A DNA stretch of 56,095 bases from Candidatus Levyibacteriota bacterium. Its GTDB lineage: Bacteria; Patescibacteriota; Microgenomatia; Levybacterales; UBA12049. The stretch is taken from positions 190,707-246,801 of the forward strand of contig JAJDCG010000002.1 in NCBI GenBank assembly GCA_029260965.1, in the 5' to 3' direction. Shown piece by piece: positions 4,788-35,251 of the stretch; position 1 is the first letter of the stretch, and every line of letters begins with the position of its first letter. The notes beneath the pieces were generated by a model. It had not been told where the DNA came from. It worked only from the letters and a program-made list of their open reading frames with translations, and searched no databases. Both the position numbers and the translations under genes were made by a program.

Positions 4788-6296
4788 ATGCTTAAAGGAC
4801 TTGATAGTCTCCTCAACAGAGTAACGATCTACCGTTTGATGCTTTATTTTCTATTTGCGTTGTGGACGATTGCATTAATTTTTAGTTTTTTGAAAATACT
4901 ACCCTATGATTTTATTAATCTTTTTTTAACAAGCATATTTATAGTTTTCGCCTGCTTATCTTTTAATCAAATATTTGCCAAAATATCCAAAGTAAGTCCC
5001 AATATTGAATCGCAATTAATAACAGGATATATTTTGGCATTCATTGTGGGCCCGTTAGAGTTTTTGCCAAACGTGTTGTTTCTCATGTTGGTTTCAGCAA
5101 TCGCAATGGCCTCAAAATATGTATTACTTTTCAGAAAGCAGCATTTTTTCAACCCAGCAGCACTTGCTGTAGTTATTACTGCTATTTTCCTCGGTCGTGG
5201 CGCTAGTTGGTGGATTGGCGATCCTTTGATGTTGCCATTTGTTCTTATATTTGGGCTTGTGATGGTTCGTAAACTAAAAAGATTTCACTTGATTATAAGC
5301 TTTTTGTTAAGTTTTTTGGTAGCTTTATCGGTTTTAAATTTGGAGACCTTTTTAACCAATCCTGCATTTTTGCGCTCAGTTCTTCTATCTCCTCCGCTTC
5401 TTTTCTTTACGTTTGTGATGCTGACAGAGCCTATTACTTCTCCTGCTGATCGAAGAATGAGAATTTACTTTGGTGTATTTACAGGTATTATTTATGCTTT
5501 TTATACTCTGTATCTTGATGTTTTTTATACACTAGAACTATCGCTACTTAGCGCCAATCTGGTATTCAGATTTCTTAGCTCCAATAAGCGATATATGCTT
5601 GTGCTAAAAGAAAAACGTGAAATTGCAAAAAGTATTTGGGAGTTTATTTTTGAACCCGAAAAGAACTTTAATTTTACACCTGGACAATTTATGGAGTGGA
5701 CTGTACCTCATAAAAGACCTGATGCCAGAGGTGTCAGGCGTTATTTTACAATTGCTTCATCCCCTACTGAGAAGAATATAAAAATTGCTGTTAAAGTCCC
5801 TGATGAACCTAGCACCTTTAAAAAATCCTTAAAAGACATGAAGAAAGGGGACGAGGTGTATACTGCCAACCTGGAGGGAGACTTCATCCTACAAAAAGAC
5901 CCAAACCTGCATTATGTTTTTATAGCAGGAGGAATTGGCGTGACTCCATATAGAAGCATCATCAAATATATGCTTGATAACAGGGAAAATCATCCTGTTA
6001 CTCTTTTTTATATTGCTAAAAATGATAAAGAGTTTGTGTATGATGAGCTTTTTGAGACTGCAAAATCAGTAGGTGTCAATACAATACGCGTAATATCTGA
6101 TACGCCTCCAGATAGATGGAAGGGTGAAACGGGGCATCTGAATGCTGATATTATAAAACGGCATGTTGATGATCCTGAGAGTGCGCTATACTACATATCA
6201 GGCCCTCCAATGATGGTTGATGCCTACAAGGATCTTCTCCATCAAATGGGGCTAAAAGGCTCTCAAATAAAAACAGATTACTTCCCAGGGTATTAG
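4788..6296 (+). CDS. RnfD/NqrB-like membrane domain fused to FNR-type FAD/NAD(P) oxidoreductase
   Basis: N-terminal TM region with FNPAA and MLTEPITSP; C-terminal RYFTIASSP, AGGIGVTP, YISGPPMMV. Confidence 0.85.
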   Translation: MLKGLDSLLNRVTIYRLMLYFLFALWTIALIFSFLKILPYDFINLFLTSIFIVFACLSFNQIFAKISKVSPNIESQLITGYILAFIVGPLEFLPNVLFLMLVSAIAMASKYVLLFRKQHFFNPAALAVVITAIFLGRGASWWIGDPLMLPFVLIFGLVMVRKLKRFHLIISFLLSFLVALSVLNLETFLTNPAFLRSVLLSPPLLFFTFVMLTEPITSPADRRMRIYFGVFTGIIYAFYTLYLDVFYTLELSLLSANLVFRFLSSNKRYMLVLKEKREIAKSIWEFIFEPEKNFNFTPGQFMEWTVPHKRPDARGVRRYFTIASSPTEKNIKIAVKVPDEPSTFKKSLKDMKKGDEVYTANLEGDFILQKDPNLHYVFIAGGIGVTPYRSIIKYMLDNRENHPVTLFYIAKNDKEFVYDELFETAKSVGVNTIRVISDTPPDRWKGETGHLNADIIKRHVDDPESALYYISGPPMMVDAYKDLLHQMGLKGSQIKTDYFPGY

Positions 6297-8312: not shown

Positions 8313-9593
8313 ATGGATTTTTTAGTAATATTTTCTCTCATACTTTTAAATGGTGTATTTGCCATGGCTGAGACAGCAGTGGTTGCATCGCGTAACTCCA
8401 AACTTAAACTGATGGCTAAGGATGGATCAGAAAATGCGCAAGCAGCGTTGGAGCTTTCAAGTTCACCAAACAGGTTTTTATCAACAATTCAAATTGGTAT
8501 CACCCTTATTGCAATATTTGCCGGCGCTTTTGGTGAGGCAACGATTGCTAGTTCATTTGAAAAGATCTTCTCTAGTATTCCGTTTATTTCTTCCTATGCC
8601 AATGCCCTGGCACTGGTAGTGGTGGTTGCAGGTATTTCTTTTCTTTCTCTTGTATTTGGCGAGCTTTTTCCAAAACGTGTTGCGCTCTCAAGTCCTGAAA
8701 AAATTGCAACAATTGTTGCGAAGCCGATGAATCTGCTTTCAATTCTTGCACGTCCTGGTGTAAATCTTCTTAGCAATTCTACAGATTTTCTTTTGAATGT
8801 TTTTGGAATAAAACATGGTAATGAGTTGCCTGTTAGCGAGGAAGAAATAAGAATGCTTATAAAAGATGGTGCTAGAGCTGGGGTTTTTAATCATGTAGAA
8901 AAAAATATCTTTGAGCGAATTTTCAGACTAGGTGATAAAAAAGTTAGTATGATTATGACTCCAAAACATGAGGTTGTCTGGATTGATATAAAAAATACAG
9001 ATAAAGAAATTAGGACGCTTGTTACAAAAAATCCTTTTTCATATTATCCTGTTTGTGATGACAGTCTTGATAAGGTAGTGGGTCTCCTCTTGACGGAGGA
9101 AGCATTGACACATTTTTTGACTGATAAAGAAATAGATCTGAAAAAACTTCTTCACAAACCTATTTTCATACCCGAGAGTATGGAAGCAATAAAAGTTCTC
9201 GAACTTTTTAAGGTAACTGGAATTCATATGGCAATTGTCATTGATGAATACGGCGGAATGATGGGTATTCTTTCACTAACAGATGTTTTGGAAGAGATTG
9301 TGGGTGATATACCGAGTCTGGATGAGGTGAAAGATAAGGATATACTCGAGAGAAAAGACGGTACATTTCTGGTTGATGGCTTAGTGTCAGTTAGTGAGTT
9401 CAAGGAATTTTTTAATGTAAAAAAAATTCCTGAGGATAAAACAGGGAGTTTTCAGACAGTTGGTGGGTTTGTTATGGATATGATGGATAAAATTCCTGTA
9501 CCTGGTGATAATTTTGAATGGGAGAGGTTTTATTTTGAGGTGATGGATATGGACAAAAATCGTGTTGACAAGGTATTGATAAAAAAAATTTAA
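8313..9593 (+). CDS. Hemolysin-family CNNM/CBS/CorC-HlyC protein
   Basis: AMAETAVV, LSTIQIGIT, GELFPK, VIDEYGG, DVLEEIVGDI. Confidence 0.92.
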   Translation: MDFLVIFSLILLNGVFAMAETAVVASRNSKLKLMAKDGSENAQAALELSSSPNRFLSTIQIGITLIAIFAGAFGEATIASSFEKIFSSIPFISSYANALALVVVVAGISFLSLVFGELFPKRVALSSPEKIATIVAKPMNLLSILARPGVNLLSNSTDFLLNVFGIKHGNELPVSEEEIRMLIKDGARAGVFNHVEKNIFERIFRLGDKKVSMIMTPKHEVVWIDIKNTDKEIRTLVTKNPFSYYPVCDDSLDKVVGLLLTEEALTHFLTDKEIDLKKLLHKPIFIPESMEAIKVLELFKVTGIHMAIVIDEYGGMMGILSLTDVLEEIVGDIPSLDEVKDKDILERKDGTFLVDGLVSVSEFKEFFNVKKIPEDKTGSFQTVGGFVMDMMDKIPVPGDNFEWERFYFEVMDMDKNRVDKVLIKKI

Positions 9594-9597
9594 ATTA

Positions 9598-10365
9598 CTA
9601 GTGTGCGTGACCAAGTAGAGTTGTTGAAGCATAGATAACTAGTACTCCAATCAGGAGCAACACGCTTTCAATGAGCGCATGTCCTTTTCTTTTTTCAAAA
9701 TGTATTTCAGGGATAAGATCAGATGTTGCTATATAGATGAAAAAACCTGCTGTGAGAGCAAGCAGTACAGGAATATTCCCCTGGATTTTATCTCCTATGA
9801 GATATGTTCCGATTGCACCTATAAATGAGATTCCAGCGCTCATGATATTGACTAGGATTACTTTTTTACGTTTTAAGCCCTTGTGCAGCATGAGCCCGAA
9901 GTCCCCTATCTCCTGTGGCAACTCATGTGCGAATACAGCAAGTGCTGTAACAATTCCCAGCTGAATATTTGTCATAAAAGTTGCAGCAATGATGACTCCG
10001 TCTATAAAATTATGCATACTGTCCCCAATTATGATAAGTGGTAAAGTCGTTTTTGTTTCCTTTTCATGCATGTGGTGTTCTTCGTGGTGATGGAACCAAT
10101 GGATACCTCTCTCAATTAGGAAAAACAGGATAATACCGAACAGGGTCCATGAAAAGACGTCAATCCCAAGTTCTTCACTTTCATGTACAGCTTCAGGTAA
10201 TAGATCAAAAAATGCGCTTCCCAAAAGCACACCAGCTGCAAATGATGAAAGAAAATGAGATATTTTTAAAGCAAGTTTTTCTTTGGACAAAAGTATAATT
10301 CCACCAATTAGAGCACCTAAGCTCCCTATAAATGTAAATAATAATATGTATGTTAGCGTTGACAT
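9598..10365 (-). CDS. ZIP family metal (Zn) transporter
   Basis: FAAGVLL, His-rich loop, HNFIDG, HELPQEIGDF. Confidence 0.92.
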   Translation of the reverse strand: MSTLTYILLFTFIGSLGALIGGIILLSKEKLALKISHFLSSFAAGVLLGSAFFDLLPEAVHESEELGIDVFSWTLFGIILFFLIERGIHWFHHHEEHHMHEKETKTTLPLIIIGDSMHNFIDGVIIAATFMTNIQLGIVTALAVFAHELPQEIGDFGLMLHKGLKRKKVILVNIMSAGISFIGAIGTYLIGDKIQGNIPVLLALTAGFFIYIATSDLIPEIHFEKRKGHALIESVLLLIGVLVIYASTTLLGHAH

Positions 10366-25956: not shown

Positions 25957-26226
25957 TTACTTTCTATAAACCTTGTCGTGGTTGCCTATTTTAAAAAATA
26001 TAGCCTCATTTTCTTTAAAAGTATAGATTAGTCGGATATTACCCTCTACAGATATGCTCCTTGTATTTTTTAGGCTTCCTCTTAATTTGTGAGTTCTGAG
26101 TGATGGATGTTTGGTGTTTTTTTGAAAAAGTTTTAATTGTTTTTGGACCTTTTTAAATAATTGTGGTTGTTTTCTTTTAATTTTTTTGAGTTCAGAGGTA
26201 AGTTCTTTTGAAAAAGAAATGTCCAT
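25957..26226 (-). CDS. Type II toxin, RelE/YafQ superfamily
   Basis: HPSLRTHKL, IRLIY, IGNHDKVY. Confidence 0.85.
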   Translation of the reverse strand: MDISFSKELTSELKKIKRKQPQLFKKVQKQLKLFQKNTKHPSLRTHKLRGSLKNTRSISVEGNIRLIYTFKENEAIFFKIGNHDKVYRK

Positions 26227-26229
26227 AGA

Positions 26230-26490
26230 TTAGAGTTTTTCAAAAAAGGCGTCTATATCTTTTACTTTTGTAGTTTTTCCCACATTATGTTCTATAACAG
26301 CTTTGTCATAAGCTTCTTCGGTCTCTGCGGATGCTTGATAAATGGGATAGTCCATGTCTTCTACATCTTTGAGGATTAGGTGCTTGATATATCCCGCAAC
26401 AGGCACGCCAAATTTATCGGCTTTACTGTCCAGAAAACTCTTCAAAGGAAGTGGGATGTTTATTTTAATTTGTGCCTGTTGAGTATTCAT
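26230..26490 (-). CDS. Cognate antitoxin (RHH/RelB-like)
   Basis: Small acidic-tailed ORF immediately upstream of the toxin; N-terminal strand-helix-helix pattern; ATG 26490. Confidence 0.75.
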   Translation of the reverse strand: MNTQQAQIKINIPLPLKSFLDSKADKFGVPVAGYIKHLILKDVEDMDYPIYQASAETEEAYDKAVIEHNVGKTTKVKDIDAFFEKL

Positions 26491-26513
26491 ACACTTATAA
26501 TAGCACCAATTAC

Positions 26514-26530
26514 AGTACTTTTCAAGTACT
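26514..26530. promoter_or_regulatory. TA operator candidate overlapping the -35 box
   Basis: AGTACTT-TTC-AAGTACT inverted repeat over a minus-strand TTGAAA-17-TATTAT promoter. Confidence 0.6.
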
Positions 26531-26533
26531 TTT

Positions 26534-27076
26534 TTATGCATTTAGCACCCAGTTTTTTGATACTTCTGGTACTGAGCAGAGATTGCGGTTAAAGCAGCAG
26601 GGGCGTCTCATTCCTTTGTTCAATTTATCTAGCATTACTTCTATATGTTTTTGTCTGGTTTCAGGTGTCTTGACCGCCCTGATCCAGCGGATCCAGTCCC
26701 ATCTGGCACTTGGAGTGATATCCTCCCACAAGGCTTTTGCTTTTGGAGATACTGATAGAGCCTTTTTTACATCAGTTGGGATAACTGGTTCTATCCATTC
26801 TTTGGTTGGTTCAATTACGATACTTACCATGTCCCCTGCCACGGCATGAGCTTTATCAAGAAGTCTTTTATCAGGCGCAAACCAATGACTTGGCCTCAGC
26901 CCTGGTCCATACCTCCCATCTGGCTCAAGTAGGGTTTTGAAAGGAACGCCGTTTAATTTTCCTGACACCATTGTCATAGCTCTGGTTGGGAGCTGAGCTG
27001 ACGCCTCCTCAGGCAGTCTGAGAATAGTCCAGTCGTTGATCTTAGAAAGCCTGGTTTCAAAGCGAATTTCGGACAT
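26534..27076 (-). CDS. DUF1905 + YdeI/OmdA-like protein
   Basis: PTDVKKAL...WIRWIRAVKTPETRQK; RPCCF tail. Confidence 0.8.
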   Translation of the reverse strand: MSEIRFETRLSKINDWTILRLPEEASAQLPTRAMTMVSGKLNGVPFKTLLEPDGRYGPGLRPSHWFAPDKRLLDKAHAVAGDMVSIVIEPTKEWIEPVIPTDVKKALSVSPKAKALWEDITPSARWDWIRWIRAVKTPETRQKHIEVMLDKLNKGMRRPCCFNRNLCSVPEVSKNWVLNA

Positions 27077-27187
27077 AAAGATAGTATACCAAACTAAGGC
27101 TGAGATGTTAATTTATGTGTAAAGTTAAATTAATTAAACAAAGGGATTAGGTTGACTTTTCAATTTAAATGAATCTATAATTGCAAA

Positions 27188-27706
27188 ATGACAAGGCGCG
27201 AAGTAGACATCAGGTCATCAAAAGAATATTACAGAGATAGATTAGTAGAGAAAGAGTATAAGAGTAAAAAACTCTCTGCTTTAATTGCTCTGTCAATATG
27301 GCCTATTTTTTCAGGTATAAAAATGAGCAAAAATGATAACGATCTAGCTATTTTATGTGTTGGGAAAAAATTTCAAGTTTTTAAAAATGAAAATAGAGTT
27401 AATAGGATGCGTCAGGGAAATTTGGGATTAGTAAGTGAAAGAGGAGAGTTAATAATGGAAGCTGGTGAAATAGCTGCGTCTAGATTTGATACAGAAATAG
27501 TTGAATCTAAAAAAAATTTCTTTAAAGATTATGAAGAAAGGGCGTCCACAATTGAGAATGCAGTTAATGATTTTTTTGTTCAAATGGTGGTAAGAACTGA
27601 CTCGAAAAGTTATAAGATCAAGAAGCTACCAAAGCGTAGTGTGCTTAGGGCATGGAGGAATGAATGGGTTCCTAAGCTTAATAATGTTCAGGACTCCTCA
27701 GGCTAG
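27188..27706 (+). CDS. Hypothetical protein
   Basis: 172-aa ORF preceded by TTGACT and TATAAT, with ATG 6 nt after the -10. Confidence 0.65.
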   Translation: MTRREVDIRSSKEYYRDRLVEKEYKSKKLSALIALSIWPIFSGIKMSKNDNDLAILCVGKKFQVFKNENRVNRMRQGNLGLVSERGELIMEAGEIAASRFDTEIVESKKNFFKDYEERASTIENAVNDFFVQMVVRTDSKSYKIKKLPKRSVLRAWRNEWVPKLNNVQDSSG

Positions 27707-27905
27707 TGCATATTTTCATCACGAAGAAAACAAATTGTATTGGCCCTGATAGCCACCAAGACTCTTCACGCAATTGGGGTACCCTACCGAATGACGTTAG
27801 GACTCACTTTAGTACATTATCGCAGAAAGACATAGCCTTTTTCAAACACTCCTACGCCGTTCTTTACGCTTAACACCTCTTTCATAGTCACTTTCCTAGA
27901 TAATA

Positions 27906-27918
27906 TGTAATCATTACA
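27906..27918. repeat. 13-bp palindrome TGTAATCATTACA, copy 1
   Basis: Identical to 31619-31631. Confidence 0.8.
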
Positions 27919-28067
27919 CGCCCTCCTGTTGCGAGGAGGTAGGTAGTGACAGTTGCCAGCCTATCTTAGGGGTATGGGGTGGCAGGGATAAAAAACTGCC
28001 TGGGAGTCCCAATGGTGACCTGGGCGGGAGTGAAGCAGGAGTGTTGCGCAGCTTTAGATATGCCCTT

Positions 28068-31000
28068 TTACTTTATTGACTCAGGGTCGATATCTTTCAT
28101 CCATCGTAACAACGAGTTAATTACTTTGTCTACCTCGCCATCTGCATCATGAGCAGCAGACTCTTGCATCCTGTTTCCTTGGAGTTCTGGAACGCCTTCC
28201 ATCTTCCAATCATCTTTTGAGATTTTGTATGTAGCAAGAAACATAAATTGAAGATTTGTTTTTTCTTCTCTTTCAGAGAAATGGTAAAGCTCTTTTTTTA
28301 TATCAAATCCACCAGTACTACATATACGTTTCCTGTATCTCAGTGAACCAATAACTATCATAAATTTCGATTTTGGTAGGTTTATATTAATTTTATCTTT
28401 TATAGTGGGTGCAGGATACTCTGCATCAAGAAACGTTATGTAACCTTTATCTTTCAGTTTTTTATTCAACTTTGTTACAAAAGAATTTTCTCCAACTGCA
28501 GCATCTGTTCCAGCAGAAGCATGACTAATAAAAATATCAACCGTCTGTTCCGAACCGATTTCGTTCATCCTGTCTCTGACAAGTGGATAAGTCCATACGA
28601 TAGTTTTACCATCAATAAACGCTAACGCATTTGCACTATCAACAACTTTTATAACCAAGTTATGTTTTGCACTCAGTTCAGAAATACGCTTTAACAGCCA
28701 GTTTATTTCTGGTACTTCAAGGTGTTGTTCTGCCCACGATTTCAATACTGTAAGGGCATCAAGAGATAAGAGGAATTCATCTCTTGCAACAAAGTCTATT
28801 ACTACGCTCCATAAGTAGGACGCATACTCTTTATGGTCAGGTTTTTCGACTAAAGTCAAAGAGAAATCCAAGAGGTCGATAAAACGGTCTAGATAGCCTT
28901 CGTCATCCAATTCAACAAGTGGCTTGGCAAATGATTTCGTATCAAGTTCCATCTCCAAGTTTCCAACTGAATGAGCGCCTTCCTGCCTACGGAATGGAGT
29001 TGCTGAAGACTTTAATGTGTCAAACCGCCATGCTATTGCGTTTTCATTGCGAAACACTGAAACTAGAAGTCCATTTGCCAAATCAGAAAGTCTACTTCTC
29101 GCATCGGGTGTCCAAAGTTTTTTGAGAAGCGTTTCGACATCAGCATCTTCTTTTGAAATATATTTCTCTAAATTTTCCAAAGCATATTCACGGTCATGAG
29201 CTGCAATCAGCGTGTCTTCAATAAATGAAATTAATACTTCTTTTGGCGATGACAATCCTGGTGAAACGCTTGCAAGATATATATATGTTTGAGGAATAAG
29301 GTATCGTAAGTCCTTTGTTTTATCGAGCATTATTTCATTCAATGGAGCCAAATCTTCATCAGATATCTCCCCCAGCATTTCTTTGAAATTTTTAAACTCG
29401 GAAAGATAAGAAAAAGGTACGAAGGTGAACAGTTTTTTTCGATTTTCTGGCTGCTGAAGTATGGCTGGGTTGAGTTCATGAATGACTTCAAGCACGGCAG
29501 GGAAATATGAAGCGATAGAGCTGATTGTGTATTCACCAGATTTTGTTTCTGGGTTGTTGTAGTGCATCTCGAGTTTGGCAGGGTCGATTTTTTCTAAATT
29601 ACTTTCCACAGCAAGTTTTAAGAGCCGTTCCTTTTCCGCCGAGGTTGCTTTTGTAAGTAAGAATTTTTTATTTTCAATGAAGTAACGAAAAACTTGAGGG
29701 AAGTATTTATCTTCTCCAGGACTTAGGAATTTCTGAAATTGTTTATAAATTTTATCGTTCTGTTCAGTTTGATAATCTTTTTGTTCCCGTGGTACGTTAG
29801 GGTCTGCAGTTACTCCCAGTTCAATACCTTTCTTGAGTACTGCATCTCCATCTGGATTTCCTGTATGTGGCGCAAGTCTTACCGCTTGGGCAAGTGCATA
29901 TAGTGCATATCCAGCATGGTGGTGCAGTTGGTCTTTAAAAATACCACGGAGTTTCTCAAGCTTTTCAGGCTTTAATAAAACAGAAAGGGTTCCTTCTATG
30001 TCATTAATAAATAAAATCTGTTGCTGCTCTTTGCCGAGGTCTTTTATTGTTTGAATAAATTCATCGAGGTATTCTGGCTCCCCATCTTGAATGATTAGGG
30101 CGGATTGCTGTAAAAACCAAGATTTTCCAGCGTCATAATTCCGTTCGCCTGTAAATGACGAGATAATTATCTTTTTAAGTAAAGAAATTATTTCTGCGTT
30201 TTTATATTTTTTAATGTTTTCGACTAAGGTATCGTCAGCTTGCTTGTCTTCTTTATTGAAAATTGACTCATTATCAAGGAACTCATGAATAAAGTCTGGA
30301 TTTATAGAAAACTGCCGAAGGAAATATTCAATTCCAGCCTGCGTATCTATAGAGTACAGTGCATTTCGTGCATAAATGTGAGCGGTGTCACTGGCAATCG
30401 CTTTAACAAAAACATCAATAGAGGCAGGCTCATTTGCATCTATTGCACGACACATACTTATAAAGGCTTCTCTTACTAAGGAGTCACCGCTATCTGCGTT
30501 CTTTTTTACCTGAAGAATAATATCAACCTCTCCTTTGAAGTTTTCGAGAGCTGCCATAGAGTGGCGATTGAGGACTTCATTTTCGTTAGCCTCGTTTGCG
30601 TAAGAGATAAGTTTCTCTTTCCAAAATTTTCTCTCAGCCTCATTAAGGAGCCTATTATTGTTTTGCAGCATGCCGTCAATTGTTGCGGCAATATTTCCTT
30701 TATGAACATATTCTTTATCATCAGAGTTTGCTTTTAACTCTTTATAAATTGGTTCGTCGATGAACTTATACAAGTTATGGTATACCCACACAGGAAGCCA
30801 AAATTTCTTATTTTGGTATCTGTTGAATACTAGGTAAAACAATTCTTTTTGCAGTGCAGAAGGAATTGCTTGAGGTGTAGTGAATATTAGCGTCTCTGCT
30901 ACTTGGTCAACTAAAGAGTCGTCATTCTTTGAAAGAAATTTTGCAGACCAGGTGGTATAAGTGTTTGCGTCCTGTTCTATCAAAAATCGAAAAACACCTG

Positions 31001-31568
31001 TCCATGAAGGTTTCAAAACGGGTGTTCCTGTTTGTTCAGAAACGACCAGATTTTCCATTTCTTCGATAGGTTTATCCTGGCTCAGAATATGGTCTGAAAC
31101 TAAAAACTCAGTTAAAGTATGATGAGCCCAAGTTACTATTTCGTCATTCTCTTCTGTTTTTCGAGATACAAATCCAATTTCTTCCAGGAATTCGAGAGTT
31201 AAAGTACTAGGTGCATTGATTTTACTCAGTACGTCAGAAAATTCTTTAGCTGGTAGCTGGTTTTTCTCTACTTGCTCAAAATAAAGACCAAGCTTTTGAA
31301 AAACTTCACGCAAGTTTTTATACTGGGGAACTGTTTTGTTAAAAAAGTAATAGTAATAATTAAAGCGAGAAAAGGTGTCGGGTTTAGTATCTTTTAAAAA
31401 TTCCTTGAGGACATTAAAATGCTTTGGATTAGAAATGAAGCTGTTGTACGCATCGTGAAACCAGAACTGCTCTATGACTGCATCGATAAGCTCATTGCTG
31501 TATCCGAGCTCTGATAATTCTTTCCTAATGTCTTCATTTGAGAGTAAATCTGGGTTGTCAAATAACAT
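28068..31568 (-). CDS. Large helical-repeat protein with STAND-like winged-helix motif and C-terminal TIR domain
   Basis: WAHHTLTEFL...SWTGVFRFL near the N-terminus; C-terminal DIFISHAS...GYITFLD...SKFMIVIGS...KKEL; likely start ATG 31568. Confidence 0.8.
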   Translation of the reverse strand: MLFDNPDLLSNEDIRKELSELGYSNELIDAVIEQFWFHDAYNSFISNPKHFNVLKEFLKDTKPDTFSRFNYYYYFFNKTVPQYKNLREVFQKLGLYFEQVEKNQLPAKEFSDVLSKINAPSTLTLEFLEEIGFVSRKTEENDEIVTWAHHTLTEFLVSDHILSQDKPIEEMENLVVSEQTGTPVLKPSWTGVFRFLIEQDANTYTTWSAKFLSKNDDSLVDQVAETLIFTTPQAIPSALQKELFYLVFNRYQNKKFWLPVWVYHNLYKFIDEPIYKELKANSDDKEYVHKGNIAATIDGMLQNNNRLLNEAERKFWKEKLISYANEANENEVLNRHSMAALENFKGEVDIILQVKKNADSGDSLVREAFISMCRAIDANEPASIDVFVKAIASDTAHIYARNALYSIDTQAGIEYFLRQFSINPDFIHEFLDNESIFNKEDKQADDTLVENIKKYKNAEIISLLKKIIISSFTGERNYDAGKSWFLQQSALIIQDGEPEYLDEFIQTIKDLGKEQQQILFINDIEGTLSVLLKPEKLEKLRGIFKDQLHHHAGYALYALAQAVRLAPHTGNPDGDAVLKKGIELGVTADPNVPREQKDYQTEQNDKIYKQFQKFLSPGEDKYFPQVFRYFIENKKFLLTKATSAEKERLLKLAVESNLEKIDPAKLEMHYNNPETKSGEYTISSIASYFPAVLEVIHELNPAILQQPENRKKLFTFVPFSYLSEFKNFKEMLGEISDEDLAPLNEIMLDKTKDLRYLIPQTYIYLASVSPGLSSPKEVLISFIEDTLIAAHDREYALENLEKYISKEDADVETLLKKLWTPDARSRLSDLANGLLVSVFRNENAIAWRFDTLKSSATPFRRQEGAHSVGNLEMELDTKSFAKPLVELDDEGYLDRFIDLLDFSLTLVEKPDHKEYASYLWSVVIDFVARDEFLLSLDALTVLKSWAEQHLEVPEINWLLKRISELSAKHNLVIKVVDSANALAFIDGKTIVWTYPLVRDRMNEIGSEQTVDIFISHASAGTDAAVGENSFVTKLNKKLKDKGYITFLDAEYPAPTIKDKININLPKSKFMIVIGSLRYRKRICSTGGFDIKKELYHFSEREEKTNLQFMFLATYKISKDDWKMEGVPELQGNRMQESAAHDADGEVDKVINSLLRWMKDIDPESIK

Positions 31569-31618
31569 AGTTTTCTGCGTATATTTTATCAAAATTACGC
31601 CTCGAGCGATATGGGGTG

Positions 31619-31631
31619 TGTAATCATTACA
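31619..31631. repeat. 13-bp palindrome TGTAATCATTACA, copy 2
   Basis: Identical to 27906-27918; lies between divergent genes. Confidence 0.8.
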
Positions 31632-31661
31632 TTCACACCTTTTCATTGAGATAATTAGGAT

Positions 31662-31807
31662 ATGGAAGAATTGACCATATCACTTAAACGAGGAAGACCA
31701 ACTAAGTACACCAAGGAAACACCACGACGTGTACTAAATTACATAAAGAGGTGCCAAGAAATTGGTGAATTTCCCACAATAGAGCACTTAGCGTCTGAAT
31801 TAGGGGT
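31662..31807 (+). pseudogene. N-terminal fragment of a phage terminase-small-subunit-like HTH protein, cut at the tRNA
   Basis: RGRPTKY...PTIEHLASELGV, then the frame continues into antisense tRNA-His to a stop at 31865. Confidence 0.55.
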
Positions 31808-31877
31808 GAGTGACGGGGATCGAACCCGCGGCATCCAGCTCCACAAGCTAGCGCTCTACCACTGAGCTACACCCACC
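31805..31877 (-). tRNA. tRNA-His(GTG)
   Basis: Encoded G-1, C73, CTAGC-TT-GTG-GA-GCTGG anticodon arm. Confidence 0.95.
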
Positions 31878-32027
31878 ATGTGGAAATTATATCAAATTTA
31901 GAGCCTACTTGAAAGGTAATCAGGTGTATTGATTTTTATAAGCTAAAATTTCCCTCTTGTCATTTATACCAATTTGGAGTTATTGTTGAAACAAGAGCAT
32001 GAAATCAGACCAGATCCATAATGGATT

Positions 32028-32059
32028 TTTACAAAAAACTTACAAACAAGGGATATAAT
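32028..32059 (+). promoter_or_regulatory. YTTACA direct repeats (11-bp period) 9 nt before TATAAT
   Basis: TTTACA 32028, CTTACA 32039, TATAAT 32054. Confidence 0.45.
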
Positions 32060-32083
32060 TAGCTTTTATTGATAGAAAGTGGT

Positions 32084-32455
32084 ATGAGCAAGGGAAAAAA
32101 GATTCTTGTAATAGATGATGATGAAGATATACTAAATGCACTTGGCATGCTGCTTTCTGGTGTCGGGTTTGATGTGACAACGTCTTCTACCCCAAATATT
32201 CTTGAATCTCTAGGGAAAGAATCTATACTCCCAGACTTGATACTTCTAGATGTAGTGCTGGTAGAAAATGATGGCCGAGAGTTATCAAAGAGATTAAAAG
32301 AAAAAAAGGAAACAAAACATATACCGATTCTCCTCATGTCTGCTCATCCAAATATAGCCGAGAGTGTGGAGGAATCAAAAGCAGATGGTTTTCTCTCTAA
32401 ACCTTTTCAGGTTGATCGGCTCCTGACTGAGATTGATAGATTTGCTTTGAATTGA
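32084..32455 (+). CDS. Single-domain response regulator receiver (CheY-like)
   Basis: ILVIDDD, PDLILLD, MSA, FLSKPF. Confidence 0.92.
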   Translation: MSKGKKILVIDDDEDILNALGMLLSGVGFDVTTSSTPNILESLGKESILPDLILLDVVLVENDGRELSKRLKEKKETKHIPILLMSAHPNIAESVEESKADGFLSKPFQVDRLLTEIDRFALN

Positions 32456-34429: not shown

Positions 34430-35251
34430 TTAGAAATTTTGTTCTGTAGAGCAAACGAAACGTGCTTCGTCCAAAATTTTCTCTTTATCCTCTCTGGATA
34501 TTGCTAATCTGTCGATAATTGATGAGTCACGGCATATATCCCTACACATAACAATACTATTCTTCAATAATTCGCTTTTGTTTTTTTCAGAGATGGTTGA
34601 TAGCGCAGTTATGGGATGAAGCCCAGATCTGTCAATCATATCTCTGAGTGAATCTCCATCAGGATAATTCCAGCTTATGACTTTCATTCCTACGCATTTG
34701 GCGTAGGTATTTACATCTATAGTTGTCTTGGTATTGGTTACGATCCACGCTTCATCAAATGCATGCTGTTCCTTTATGTCGTCAAATCTCGCCTTGGTAT
34801 ACAGAGCTACGTGTACTTGAGAGCGAGTTCCTGGATTGTTATGAAATTTTGCCTCAACCATACTTTTCTTGCCATCTTTTTCAGCAATTACATCAATTTC
34901 ATGTGATATACACTTTCCCATTATATTTTGTCTAACTTTTGTTTCATATCCCATGTCTTCAAGAATTTTTGCTATAAAGTCTTCAAACGGATAGCCTGTT
35001 GGACCCAGGTCCATAATCGATTGTTTGAGGCTGTATTTAGATTTTGCAAATGGCTCTGGAGATCTATCTAGAAATTCAAGAATATGACGGTATATTTCTT
35101 TTGTTGATATTTGATCTTTAAGTCGTTCTTGTATGTGTATGAGTGCCTCATCCTGAAGAGCTTTTGGTATTCCTGACCTTTTAATAGACGATAGAACTTT
35201 TTCCTGACTAAATGGTTCTGTTTCTCCGTTTGCTTTTACGACTGTAATCAT
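34430..35251 (-). CDS. ATP-cone + Mrr-like PD-(D/E)XK endonuclease protein
   Basis: VVKANGETEPF ATP cone; FEDFIA, EIDVIA, VEAKFH, VTNT. Confidence 0.85.
   Translation of the reverse strand: MITVVKANGETEPFSQEKVLSSIKRSGIPKALQDEALIHIQERLKDQISTKEIYRHILEFLDRSPEPFAKSKYSLKQSIMDLGPTGYPFEDFIAKILEDMGYETKVRQNIMGKCISHEIDVIAEKDGKKSMVEAKFHNNPGTRSQVHVALYTKARFDDIKEQHAFDEAWIVTNTKTTIDVNTYAKCVGMKVISWNYPDGDSLRDMIDRSGLHPITALSTISEKNKSELLKNSIVMCRDICRDSSIIDRLAISREDKEKILDEARFVCSTEQNF

Follow-up and report, generated by a model that had tools for sequence, protein, structure and literature searches.

A candidate TIR-effector protein of Candidatus Levyibacteriota and its apparently NACHT-derived relatives without a P-loop NTPase core

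Immune receptors of the STAND/NLR type are described as switches dependent on nucleoside triphosphates (NTPs), and within them the signature D[GAS]hDE separates NACHT from other STAND NTPases (Kibby et al. preprint). The same preprint already describes bacterial NACHT proteins with C-terminal effectors. In DSR2, a single large protein whose domain map extends to residue 1005, a long sensor of HEAT repeats accompanies an effector that cleaves nicotinamide adenine dinucleotide (NAD+); binding of a phage tail tube protein in the HEAT/C-terminal cavity activates the protein, its activity is dimerisation-dependent and the word ATPase occurs 0 times in the text of the paper (PMC11263360). In SARM1, an auto-inhibitory ARM repeat domain precedes a TIR NADase, the active site of which spans two TIR molecules, while SAM domains form an octamer and the activator is a metabolite. 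Already known are TIR effectors, NLR-like sensors, effectors placed C-terminally after repeats, and HEAT-NADase proteins free of an ATPase. Here we analyze a gene on the reverse strand of a 56,095-nt stretch of contig JAJDCG010000002.1 of Candidatus Levyibacteriota (hereafter the window, on which all coordinates are based), the product of which combines a predicted NACHT remnant, a helical scaffold and a TIR domain. What seems to be new is the monophyletic set of NACHT-derived proteins to which it belongs, in which the NTPase core is deleted while the rest of the receptor and the effectors are kept. We found no earlier description of such an NTPase-less clade in the literature on NACHT, STAND, TIR and Patescibacteria, though the supplements of the NACHT and Avs surveys may list the family. 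The gene and the parts of its product are the following.

28068..31568, reverse strand: gene for the P-loop-less protein with NACHT remnant, helical scaffold and TIR domain, 1166 amino acids (aa), stop codon 28068-28070.
31134..31568, reverse strand: residues 1-145, helical, homologous (hhalign) to the segment directly after the NACHT P-loop core; FWFHD is residues 35-39.
30864..31133, reverse strand: residues 146-235, region of the winged-helix signature, with WAHHTLTEFLVS (residues 147-158, 31095-31130) and PSWTGVFRFL (residues 187-196, 30981-31010), which by alignment and hhalign pair with the region of FQEYLAAKEI and PSWFNTL in the P-loop-bearing relatives.
28674..30863, reverse strand: residues 236-965, conserved helical scaffold (profile comparisons), with HEAT-type repeats shown only at about 316-420.
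28545..28673, reverse strand: residues 966-1008, linker between scaffold and TIR domain (alignment); tail-less relatives stop about here.
28071..28544, reverse strand: residues 1009-1166, TIR domain (Pfam, PADLOC, tail profile), with its beta-A motif VDIFISHAS at residues 1010-1018 (28515-28541).
28290..28292, reverse strand: codon GAG for E1093, the Glu of the IKKEL motif, invariant and aligned with catalytic E208 of AbTir.

The open reading frame (ORF) extends over 28068..31646 on the reverse strand and codes for 1192 aa when counted from its first ATG. The start at 31568 is preferred, as it corresponds to the Met or residue with which the closest homologs start; in all of the 55 first-round homologs, 34-50 residues precede the conserved FWFHD motif. 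An earlier interpretation made from the DNA letters alone (hereafter the sequence-only reading) had proposed a protein of about 1166 aa without Walker A motif, and both the length and the lack of the motif agree with our results. Pfam recognizes no P-loop domain in the window protein, which has neither a Walker A motif (GxxxxGK[ST]) nor a Walker B with the D[GAS]hDE signature.

Searching 1.84 billion cluster representatives retrieved 289 relatives at E<=1e-3 and 141 at E<=1e-30. The close ones (950-1040 aa) share the start position of the window protein; many of the more remote relatives (23-28% identity, about 1310-1435 aa) align along the whole core and have 150-290 extra residues at the N-terminus. 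In these extensions there are a Walker A (EPGxGK[TS]), a Walker B (D-[AG]-L-D-E) that conforms to the NACHT signature D[GAS]hDE, and an ISCR sensor-like strand, and the alignment of 34 P-loop-bearing relatives (A5) shows G49, G51, K52, D126, D129, E130 and R160 to be invariant. Pfam NACHT was matched by six of the ten long forms scanned, always under the gathering cut-off, and four of the ten additionally possess an N-terminal helix-turn-helix (HTH) of MerR or XRE type. When the profile of 55 P-loop-less sequences (A1) was compared with A5, hhalign returned a probability of 100% and an E of 1e-140 over 954 columns, pairing A1 18-1009 with A5 186-1174. It follows that the window protein has its N-terminus immediately past the P-loop core, and the missing core, comprising Walker A, Walker B and sensor region, amounts to about 185 aa. 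The homology of residues 1-235 to the NACHT region C-terminal to the NTPase core is certain at the level of hhalign, and the WxHHTLTEFL motif, which had been likened to a winged-helix signature, falls in the alignment opposite FQEYLAAKEI of the relatives. Moreover, a tblastn search with the P-loop domains of six relatives against 13 P-loop-less loci and the whole window gave a best E of 0.69, so that neither a P-loop remnant nor a split-off P-loop gene is present. The recurrent upstream gene, considered as a candidate for such a split-off P-loop gene, codes for a PLD-family nuclease, and with no P-loop found by tblastn this idea was dropped. By all these comparisons, the window protein appears to descend from a NACHT/STAND protein via clean loss of the P-loop core, in line with the lost nucleotide switch that had been proposed before.

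To place this loss in the family, 153 near-full-length proteins (cluster representatives; rows covering less than query positions 90-900 excluded) were analyzed with FastTree over 958 columns. A single branch with support 100 divides 98 P-loop-less from 55 P-loop-bearing proteins; the tree is unrooted, and loss is deduced because NACHT modules ancestrally have a P-loop. The N-termini of all P-loop-less proteins lie within about 23 residues of that of the window protein, and the 98 representatives, which reach down to about 25% identity, have the same start and 38 invariant columns. The P-loop-less proteins are one stable clade and not a relic, as the sequence-only reading had required of the homologs. 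They represent a natural, evolutionarily stable deletion of a whole NTPase core with retention of the receptor rest and effectors. The P-loop-bearing relatives (80 loci, L025-L104) occur in many phyla, including Patescibacteria, Nitrospirota, Planctomycetota and Bacteroidota, the latter with the cultured genera Pedobacter, Mucilaginibacter and Chitinophaga. The 12 P-loop-less genome loci bear Patescibacteria-type labels or doubtful labels of metagenome-assembled genomes (MAGs). Among 41 related genomes, the source genome counted, the family profile is found in three; the same-genus genome G001 (94% complete) is without it. In the same family of the taxonomy, the form of G023 lacks the P-loop and has a HEPN-like tail, and that of G005 (1363 aa) is a full P-loop form. 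The source genome (796 kb in two contigs, 93% complete) possesses a single copy of the gene and no family paralog.

Some further observations concern the family at large. The parent family (P0099-P0204) combines a NACHT P-loop, a HEAT-like scaffold and a C-terminal domain of about 200 aa; its members are annotated as hypothetical in databases and give only weak mad8 P-loop matches in PADLOC 2.0. The MAG records L001, L007, L010 and L012 are titled 'uncultured Gammaproteobacteria' or 'Pseudomonadales', and their gene content and nearest relatives are Patescibacteria-like, so these labels are doubtful. At L149 (263-3655), a relative of 1130 aa has a nuclease-like tail of the kind found in the P-loop-bearing clade. 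Upstream there is an in-frame stop, and only 262 nt of contig are left; the gene is either a second, independent P-loop loss or frameshifted.

The scaffold can be assigned to a repeat family in one part. Positions 505-610 of the A5 profile match designed HEAT-type alphaRep proteins (E 1.3e-13), and this part maps by hhalign to residues 316-420, approximately, of the window protein, about 100 residues in all. Pfam HEAT_2 is recorded in 3 of the 55 homologs and was found in some further relatives, and the remaining 600 or so scaffold residues are conserved without a repeat-family match. Of the roughly 800 aa of HEAT/ARM-like sequence that had been suggested earlier, HEAT-type repeats are thus demonstrated only for the segment just mentioned. 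Searched against PDB, the A1 profile gave two chance-level matches (E 0.46 and 0.79), neither of them DSR2. The resemblance to DSR2 consists in a single large protein of similar size and an NAD+-cleaving effector joined to a long HEAT-repeat sensor, whereas the DSR2 effector is a SIR2 domain at the N-terminus, the protein does not derive from a NACHT module and the A1 search against PDB detected no sequence relation. With SARM1 the window protein shares the order of helical repeats followed by a TIR NADase, as the sequence-only reading had pointed out; Pfam finds no SAM match in it, homology is shown within the TIR domain only, and the likeness is one of analogy.

Residues 1009-1166 are classified, from sequence, as a TIR domain retaining the catalytic Glu, from which NAD+ cleavage may be predicted. 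Pfam matches of the whole protein to TIR models are weak (TIR_2 with E 7e-4 and 20.5 bits vs a cut-off of 28), and the tail alone reaches 23.5 bits with TIR_2, still under the cut-off. NCBIfam yields nothing meaningful with the window protein, and in PADLOC the only hit is the candidate family PDC-S66 over the TIR part (E 6.8e-7); PADLOC thereby matches the effector of the predicted defence protein and not its scaffold. For the family, an alignment of 11 C-terminal tails taken from three lineages (A2) has seven invariant columns, including the S-H of the ISHA motif and the Glu. Taken singly, 10 of these tails match Pfam TIR_2 (best E 1.8e-9) and 8 match TIR. Searching PDB with the A2 profile produced 15 sequences at E<=1, every one a TIR protein: 4lzp (2.6e-11) and AbTir 8g83 (1.3e-9) at the top, then 7uwg, 4c7m, 4lqc, 7uxr, PdTIR 3h16 and the plant receptor Roq1. 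E1093 is invariant in 11/11 tails and in all three TIR-bearing lineages, and pairs in the profile alignments with the Glu of the W-T-N-Y-E sequence of AbTir, namely E208. The proposed C-terminal TIR domain with a Glu at the expected position is therefore borne out at the level of sequence. AbTir is inactive when carrying E208A and has lowered activity with W204A. The Trp of this WxxxE motif is not kept in the fused relatives or in the window protein itself, which has Asp there and Phe one residue earlier (A2 consensus x-I-x-T-E); WxxxE does persist in the 188-aa TIR proteins that the sister loci L114 and L115 encode as separate genes. AbTir, BtpA (TcpB) and PdTIR (8g83, 7uwg, 4lzp, 3h16) are the best solved matches of the tail profile (E 2.6e-11 to 4.2e-7) and align in the catalytic Glu; they differ from the window protein in possessing that Trp and in pairing the TIR domain with a coiled-coil, in place of a scaffold of 1000 aa.

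The C-terminal effector is exchanged within the family, as the sequence-only reading had anticipated. Among the P-loop-bearing proteins, 53 of 55 carry a conserved C-terminal domain of about 200 aa with invariant E, D and E-x-K (A4), which has no Pfam or PDB match and is nuclease-like by motif alone. The 98 P-loop-less proteins comprise 70 without tail, 15 with TIR, 10 with a helical tail of about 165 aa (HEPN-like) and 3 with other long tails, of which that of P0090 matches Mrr_cat. On the tree, the tails of the P-loop-less clade must have changed state 11 times or more, with three placements for TIR. The helical tail (A3) has an invariant R-N-x-F-x-H and an upstream E-x3-R, residues that appear to agree with the HEPN motifs described by Anantharaman et al., namely Rx4-6H with a polar residue after the R plus Ex3[KR]; it has no sequence match in Pfam or PDB, and its Atlas feature scores of 0.85-0.87 are leads only. 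The idea that the C-terminal position of the effector resulted from the loss of the ATPase is contradicted by the P-loop-bearing relatives, which nearly all have their C-terminal domain after the repeats already. The same order is found in some bacterial NACHT proteins (Kibby et al. preprint), and the effector types found here, TIR, HEPN and REase, match the list of NACHT-associated effectors in that preprint. One of the closest groups is that of bNACHT and other NLR-related proteins, through the family with NACHT, HEAT and C-terminal domain (A5), to which residues 1-965 are homologous over 954 columns; the window protein differs from it in lacking the entire P-loop core, whereas bNACHT01 loses defence upon mutation of the Walker A lysine.

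Genes without tail have their effector next door. The downstream regions of 66 metagenome loci, 12 genome loci and the window were scanned (79 loci, or 73 after removal of 6 duplicates), giving 19 non-duplicate tail-less genes with a stop codon and >=200 nt downstream (three are cut at the 5' end and their N-termini are unseen). In 18 of these 19 loci, a same-strand ORF starts between -8 and +20 nt from the stop, with none at L169. Six of the 18 adjoining ORFs code for TIR proteins, seven for nuclease-like proteins and five remain unassigned. Of the adjoining TIR genes, L004 matches Pfam TIR_2 above the cut-off (3.4e-11) and the other five match the A2 model. The seven nuclease-like ORFs form one family (A8, about 225-240 aa) with invariant D and (E/D)-x-K-N, a motif present also in the fused tail of P0106; these 'ECKNY' genes have no Pfam or PDB match and are called nuclease-like from the D...(E/D)xK motif alone. 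As a control, 20 fused TIR or HEPN-like genes with equal downstream room show no neighbour at -8 to +20 nt; six of the 20 have ORFs at gaps of -31 or +43 to +141. The fused tails together with the adjoining ORFs of the tail-less loci indicate that the scaffold comes with an effector. The fused TIR clade that includes the window protein branches from within tail-less genes, some of which are partnered by a TIR gene; its tail and the stand-alone TIR protein of L114 share only 23% identity, and the Glu residues of the two align. No neighbour family is common to the fused-TIR loci, which agrees with the one-gene form suggested before.

The five unassigned ORFs lie at L124 (7991-8674), L144 (7934-8605), L141 (6175-6996), L137 (3483-4217) and L138 (3389-3610). 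Four of them share a weak F-L-x-x-x-G-L motif, and those of L141 and L138 (the latter of 73 aa) contain a hydrophobic, membrane-like stretch. This third group of downstream genes (A10) has no PDB match.

Considering these results together, we regard it as reasonably likely that the window protein is a single-chain, NTP-independent immune sensor and effector, a defence NADase, that arose from a STAND ancestor with NACHT, HEAT and effector parts by losing the P-loop NTPase core. At rest, the TIR domain would be occluded or kept separate by the scaffold. When a protein from a phage or mobile element bound to the scaffold, this would change conformation or copies would be brought together, so that two TIR domains could form a shared active site, cleave NAD+ and stop the infected cell. 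No NTP switch would be involved, by analogy with DSR2 (SIR2 NADase with HEAT sensor) or SARM1 (ARM-inhibited TIR). The NADase activity of TIR domains requires self-association, which is provided by the NB-ARC domain in plant TNLs and by the SAM ring in SARM1; since neither NB-ARC nor SAM is present here, the assembly of the TIR domains would have to come from the scaffold, the NACHT remnant or a multivalent target. The Avs (AVAST) proteins are comparable as STAND-type sensors with exchangeable effectors, and among them KpAvs8, with its degenerate Walker motifs, offers a precedent for a probable ATPase-independent action (bioRxiv 10.64898/2026.01.04.697583), even if its ATPase domain is still present, while here the domain has been deleted clade-wide.

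Several points weigh against this interpretation. The defence of bNACHT01 needs its Walker A lysine (Kibby et al. preprint), and loss of the NTPase might abolish signalling of the NLR type. The window protein on its own falls below the Pfam cut-offs for TIR, and the missing Trp of WxxxE means that the rate or product of its TIR activity may differ. From column entropy, which is even along the protein, the scaffold is without a hypervariable stretch such as is seen in many diversifying sensors. PADLOC 2.0 finds nothing in the scaffold or in 8 of the 13 relatives scanned, and its other matches are weak or limited to P-loop and HTH parts; phage records, IMG/VR contigs and plasmids yielded no homolog. 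Finally, the architecture, the Glu, the modularity of the effectors and the accessory setting are all computed, and the mechanism drawn from them is a matter of inference.

A broader proposition, to which we give rather less credence than even, is that the whole NLR-type clade works without a nucleotide switch, the NACHT remnant and HEAT scaffold forming a self-sufficient NTP-independent sensor that drives fused or translationally coupled effectors (TIR, HEPN-like RNase or PD-(D/E)xK-like nuclease). If true, target sensing and effector release in STAND proteins would be separable from NTP-driven oligomerisation. The sister clade with NTPase, together with the split and fused versions of effectors, offers a comparative system for the role of the nucleotide switch. 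The results also add a candidate defence family to the bacteria of the candidate phyla radiation (CPR) or Patescibacteria, in which this gene takes 3.5 kb of a 796-kb genome, and point to a widespread family of NACHT-HEAT-C-terminal-domain proteins that PADLOC 2.0 does not recognize. The lineage had been presented as one with few described defence systems, a statement at odds with an aquifer survey that reports a higher density of defence in CPR bacteria.

The genomic setting of the gene was then examined for its accessory nature, and involves the following features.

27096..31802, no strand: inserted segment (about 4.7 kb) that separates the YdeI/OmdA gene from the tRNA-His 3' end (synteny with G001).
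31803..31876, reverse strand: tRNA-His (GTG), the 3' end of which abuts the inserted segment (tRNA call, Rfam).
31662..31811, forward strand: start of a gp3-type gene (terminase-small-subunit-like, HTH), about 50 codons, cut at the tRNA-His boundary and divergent from the TIR-protein gene (homology to a protein of locus L001).
31619..31631, no strand: palindrome TGTAATCATTACA, 51 nt upstream of the start codon, in an intergenic region conserved with L001.
27906..27918, no strand: second copy of the palindrome, about 150 nt downstream of the stop codon.
28000..28012, reverse strand: terminator-like hairpin with T-run, 56 nt after the stop; the sequence is also kept downstream of the L001 homolog.
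27188..27706, forward strand: ORF of 172 aa, co-inserted with the TIR-protein gene and convergent to it, without relative.

The window and G001 are syntenic, with HlyD/ABC/FtsX genes (84% identity), YdeI/OmdA (79%), tRNA-His (95%) and DinB in the same order. From YdeI to the 3' end of tRNA-His there are about 155 bp in G001 vs 4.7 kb in the window, which accommodate the 172-aa orphan ORF and the TIR-protein gene. Elsewhere, this interval contains one ORF in G002 and measures about 3.4 kb in G005, and is therefore a variable spot; the tRNA island that the sequence-only reading had recognized corresponds to this segment. The GC content is not deviant, no direct repeat of the tRNA 3' end was found as att site and Rfam detects only the tRNA over 27000-32100. 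Between the gene and the tRNA, an ORF of 67 codons lies on the opposite strand, the first 50 or so residues of which match a 142-aa protein of L001 (71% over 55 aa, E 3e-26). The latter protein is encoded divergently upstream of the L001 homolog and matches Pfam GP3_package (4e-15); next comes a gene for a large serine recombinase. The gp3-like remnant itself has no match in PHROG or phage records and is identified only via its full-length L001 homolog. The sole large serine recombinase of the source genome lies about 45 kb from the gene. The neighbours of a homolog of 74% identity (L002) are a gene for a PLD-family nuclease and a complete type I restriction-modification system, and L008 has a methylase-specificity fusion upstream. 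We thus envisage that the gene may have arrived as cargo of an integrative element at the tRNA-His 3' end and that the element has since decayed. Such an accessory, insertion-associated setting fits a defence role.

The same setting also bears on an alternative, which we hold to be unlikely, namely that the gene is a conflict module with a main role other than anti-phage defence, either stabilising or arming its integrative element (by addiction or exclusion of rivals) or acting against host cells in the episymbiosis of CPR bacteria. The gp3-like vestige adjoining the gene, the full gp3 gene and serine recombinase near the L001 homolog, the presence of serine-recombinase homologs in the flanks of 10/79 loci, a YafQ/ParE toxin-antitoxin pair inserted nearby and the virulence-type TIR proteins among the closest solved matches would all suit this explanation. 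Yet Pfam shows no secretion or delivery domain, the gene is intact in the window where the element has decayed, relatives adjoin type I restriction-modification and PLD nuclease genes in a typical defence-island setting, and the parent family has the NLR-like architecture of anti-phage proteins that have been tested.

Similarly unlikely in our view is that the TIR domain makes a signalling nucleotide, as in Thoeris, which would activate an effector encoded at another place in the genome, and does not kill through depletion of NAD+. Bacterial TIR domains can produce isomers of cyclic ADP-ribose (cADPR) or histidine-ADP-ribose (His-ADPR) as signals, the best solved matches of the tail (AbTir and TIRs of BtpA/TcpB type) are producers of cADPR isomers, and the missing Trp of WxxxE could mean altered chemistry. 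In Thoeris, however, the TIR gene pairs with an effector gene of ThsA type, while no gene is conserved beside the fused TIR forms; the position of the TIR domain is interchangeable with that of nuclease-like and HEPN-like domains, which are terminal effectors; and the 796-kb genome contains no other TIR match than that of the window protein. The study that discovered Thoeris excluded TIRs of standalone proteins as likely NAD-depleting. PADLOC gives no recognised anti-phage system, only the candidate PDC-S66 over the TIR domain.

That the NTPase is still needed and supplied in trans by another protein, so that the switch would be outsourced, we consider improbable. It would reconcile the window protein with tested bacterial NACHT proteins, which require NTP binding, and with plant TNLs, in which self-association of the TIR domain requires the NB-ARC domain. 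Against it speak the lack of a family paralog in the 93%-complete source genome and of any NACHT match above the Pfam cut-off therein (the best weak match is a chaperone of ClpB/ClpC type), as well as the absence of a P-loop gene or remnant beside the 13 P-loop-less loci or in the window and of a conserved neighbour. Least credible of all is a decaying, non-functional NACHT remnant, or a housekeeping helical scaffold with TIR as mere binding module: the defining NTPase is gone, the TIR score is under the Pfam cut-offs and the Trp is absent, but the 1166-aa frame is intact, the 98 P-loop-less representatives, even at about 25% identity, share their start position and 38 invariant columns, the Glu is invariant across all three TIR-bearing lineages, the tail-less forms are translationally coupled to effector genes and the distribution (3 of 41 relatives) is too sporadic for housekeeping.

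Besides the candidate defence NADase, the window contains some minor elements of interest. The palindrome TGTAATCATTACA (13 nt) occurs only twice in the 56-kb window, vs 0.19 copies expected, and its two copies flank the gene. At L001, an exact copy (9593-9605) lies about 90 nt downstream of the homolog, which is 52% identical, and a copy with one mismatch lies upstream; the palindrome may be an operator or a recombination site. The non-coding flanks (31569-31661 and 27780-28067 in the window; 5850-6010 and 9505-9760 in L001) are conserved despite the 52% protein identity and include the terminator-like hairpin, although the number of such hairpin sites in the region is not above chance. Because these flanks are conserved between the window and L001, the comparison suggests that the gene moves as a cassette with its own control regions.

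The 172-aa ORF has no relative among 5.8 billion clusters except itself and no match in Pfam, PHROG or PADLOC, and may be a spurious ORF. A second small insertion of the window, at 25957-26541, lies between FtsX and YdeI, where G001 has about 85 bp instead; it contains a toxin gene of YafQ/ParE type and a small upstream gene, which are likely a toxin-antitoxin pair. On the other side of the TIR-protein gene, at a distance of 3 kb, a protein of 273 aa is encoded on the reverse strand (34430-35251), consisting of an ATP-cone, Mrr_cat and an AF1548-like C-terminal domain. It gives weak PADLOC matches to the PDC-S02 and CARF-PD-(D/E)xK models, and may be another nuclease of defence type.

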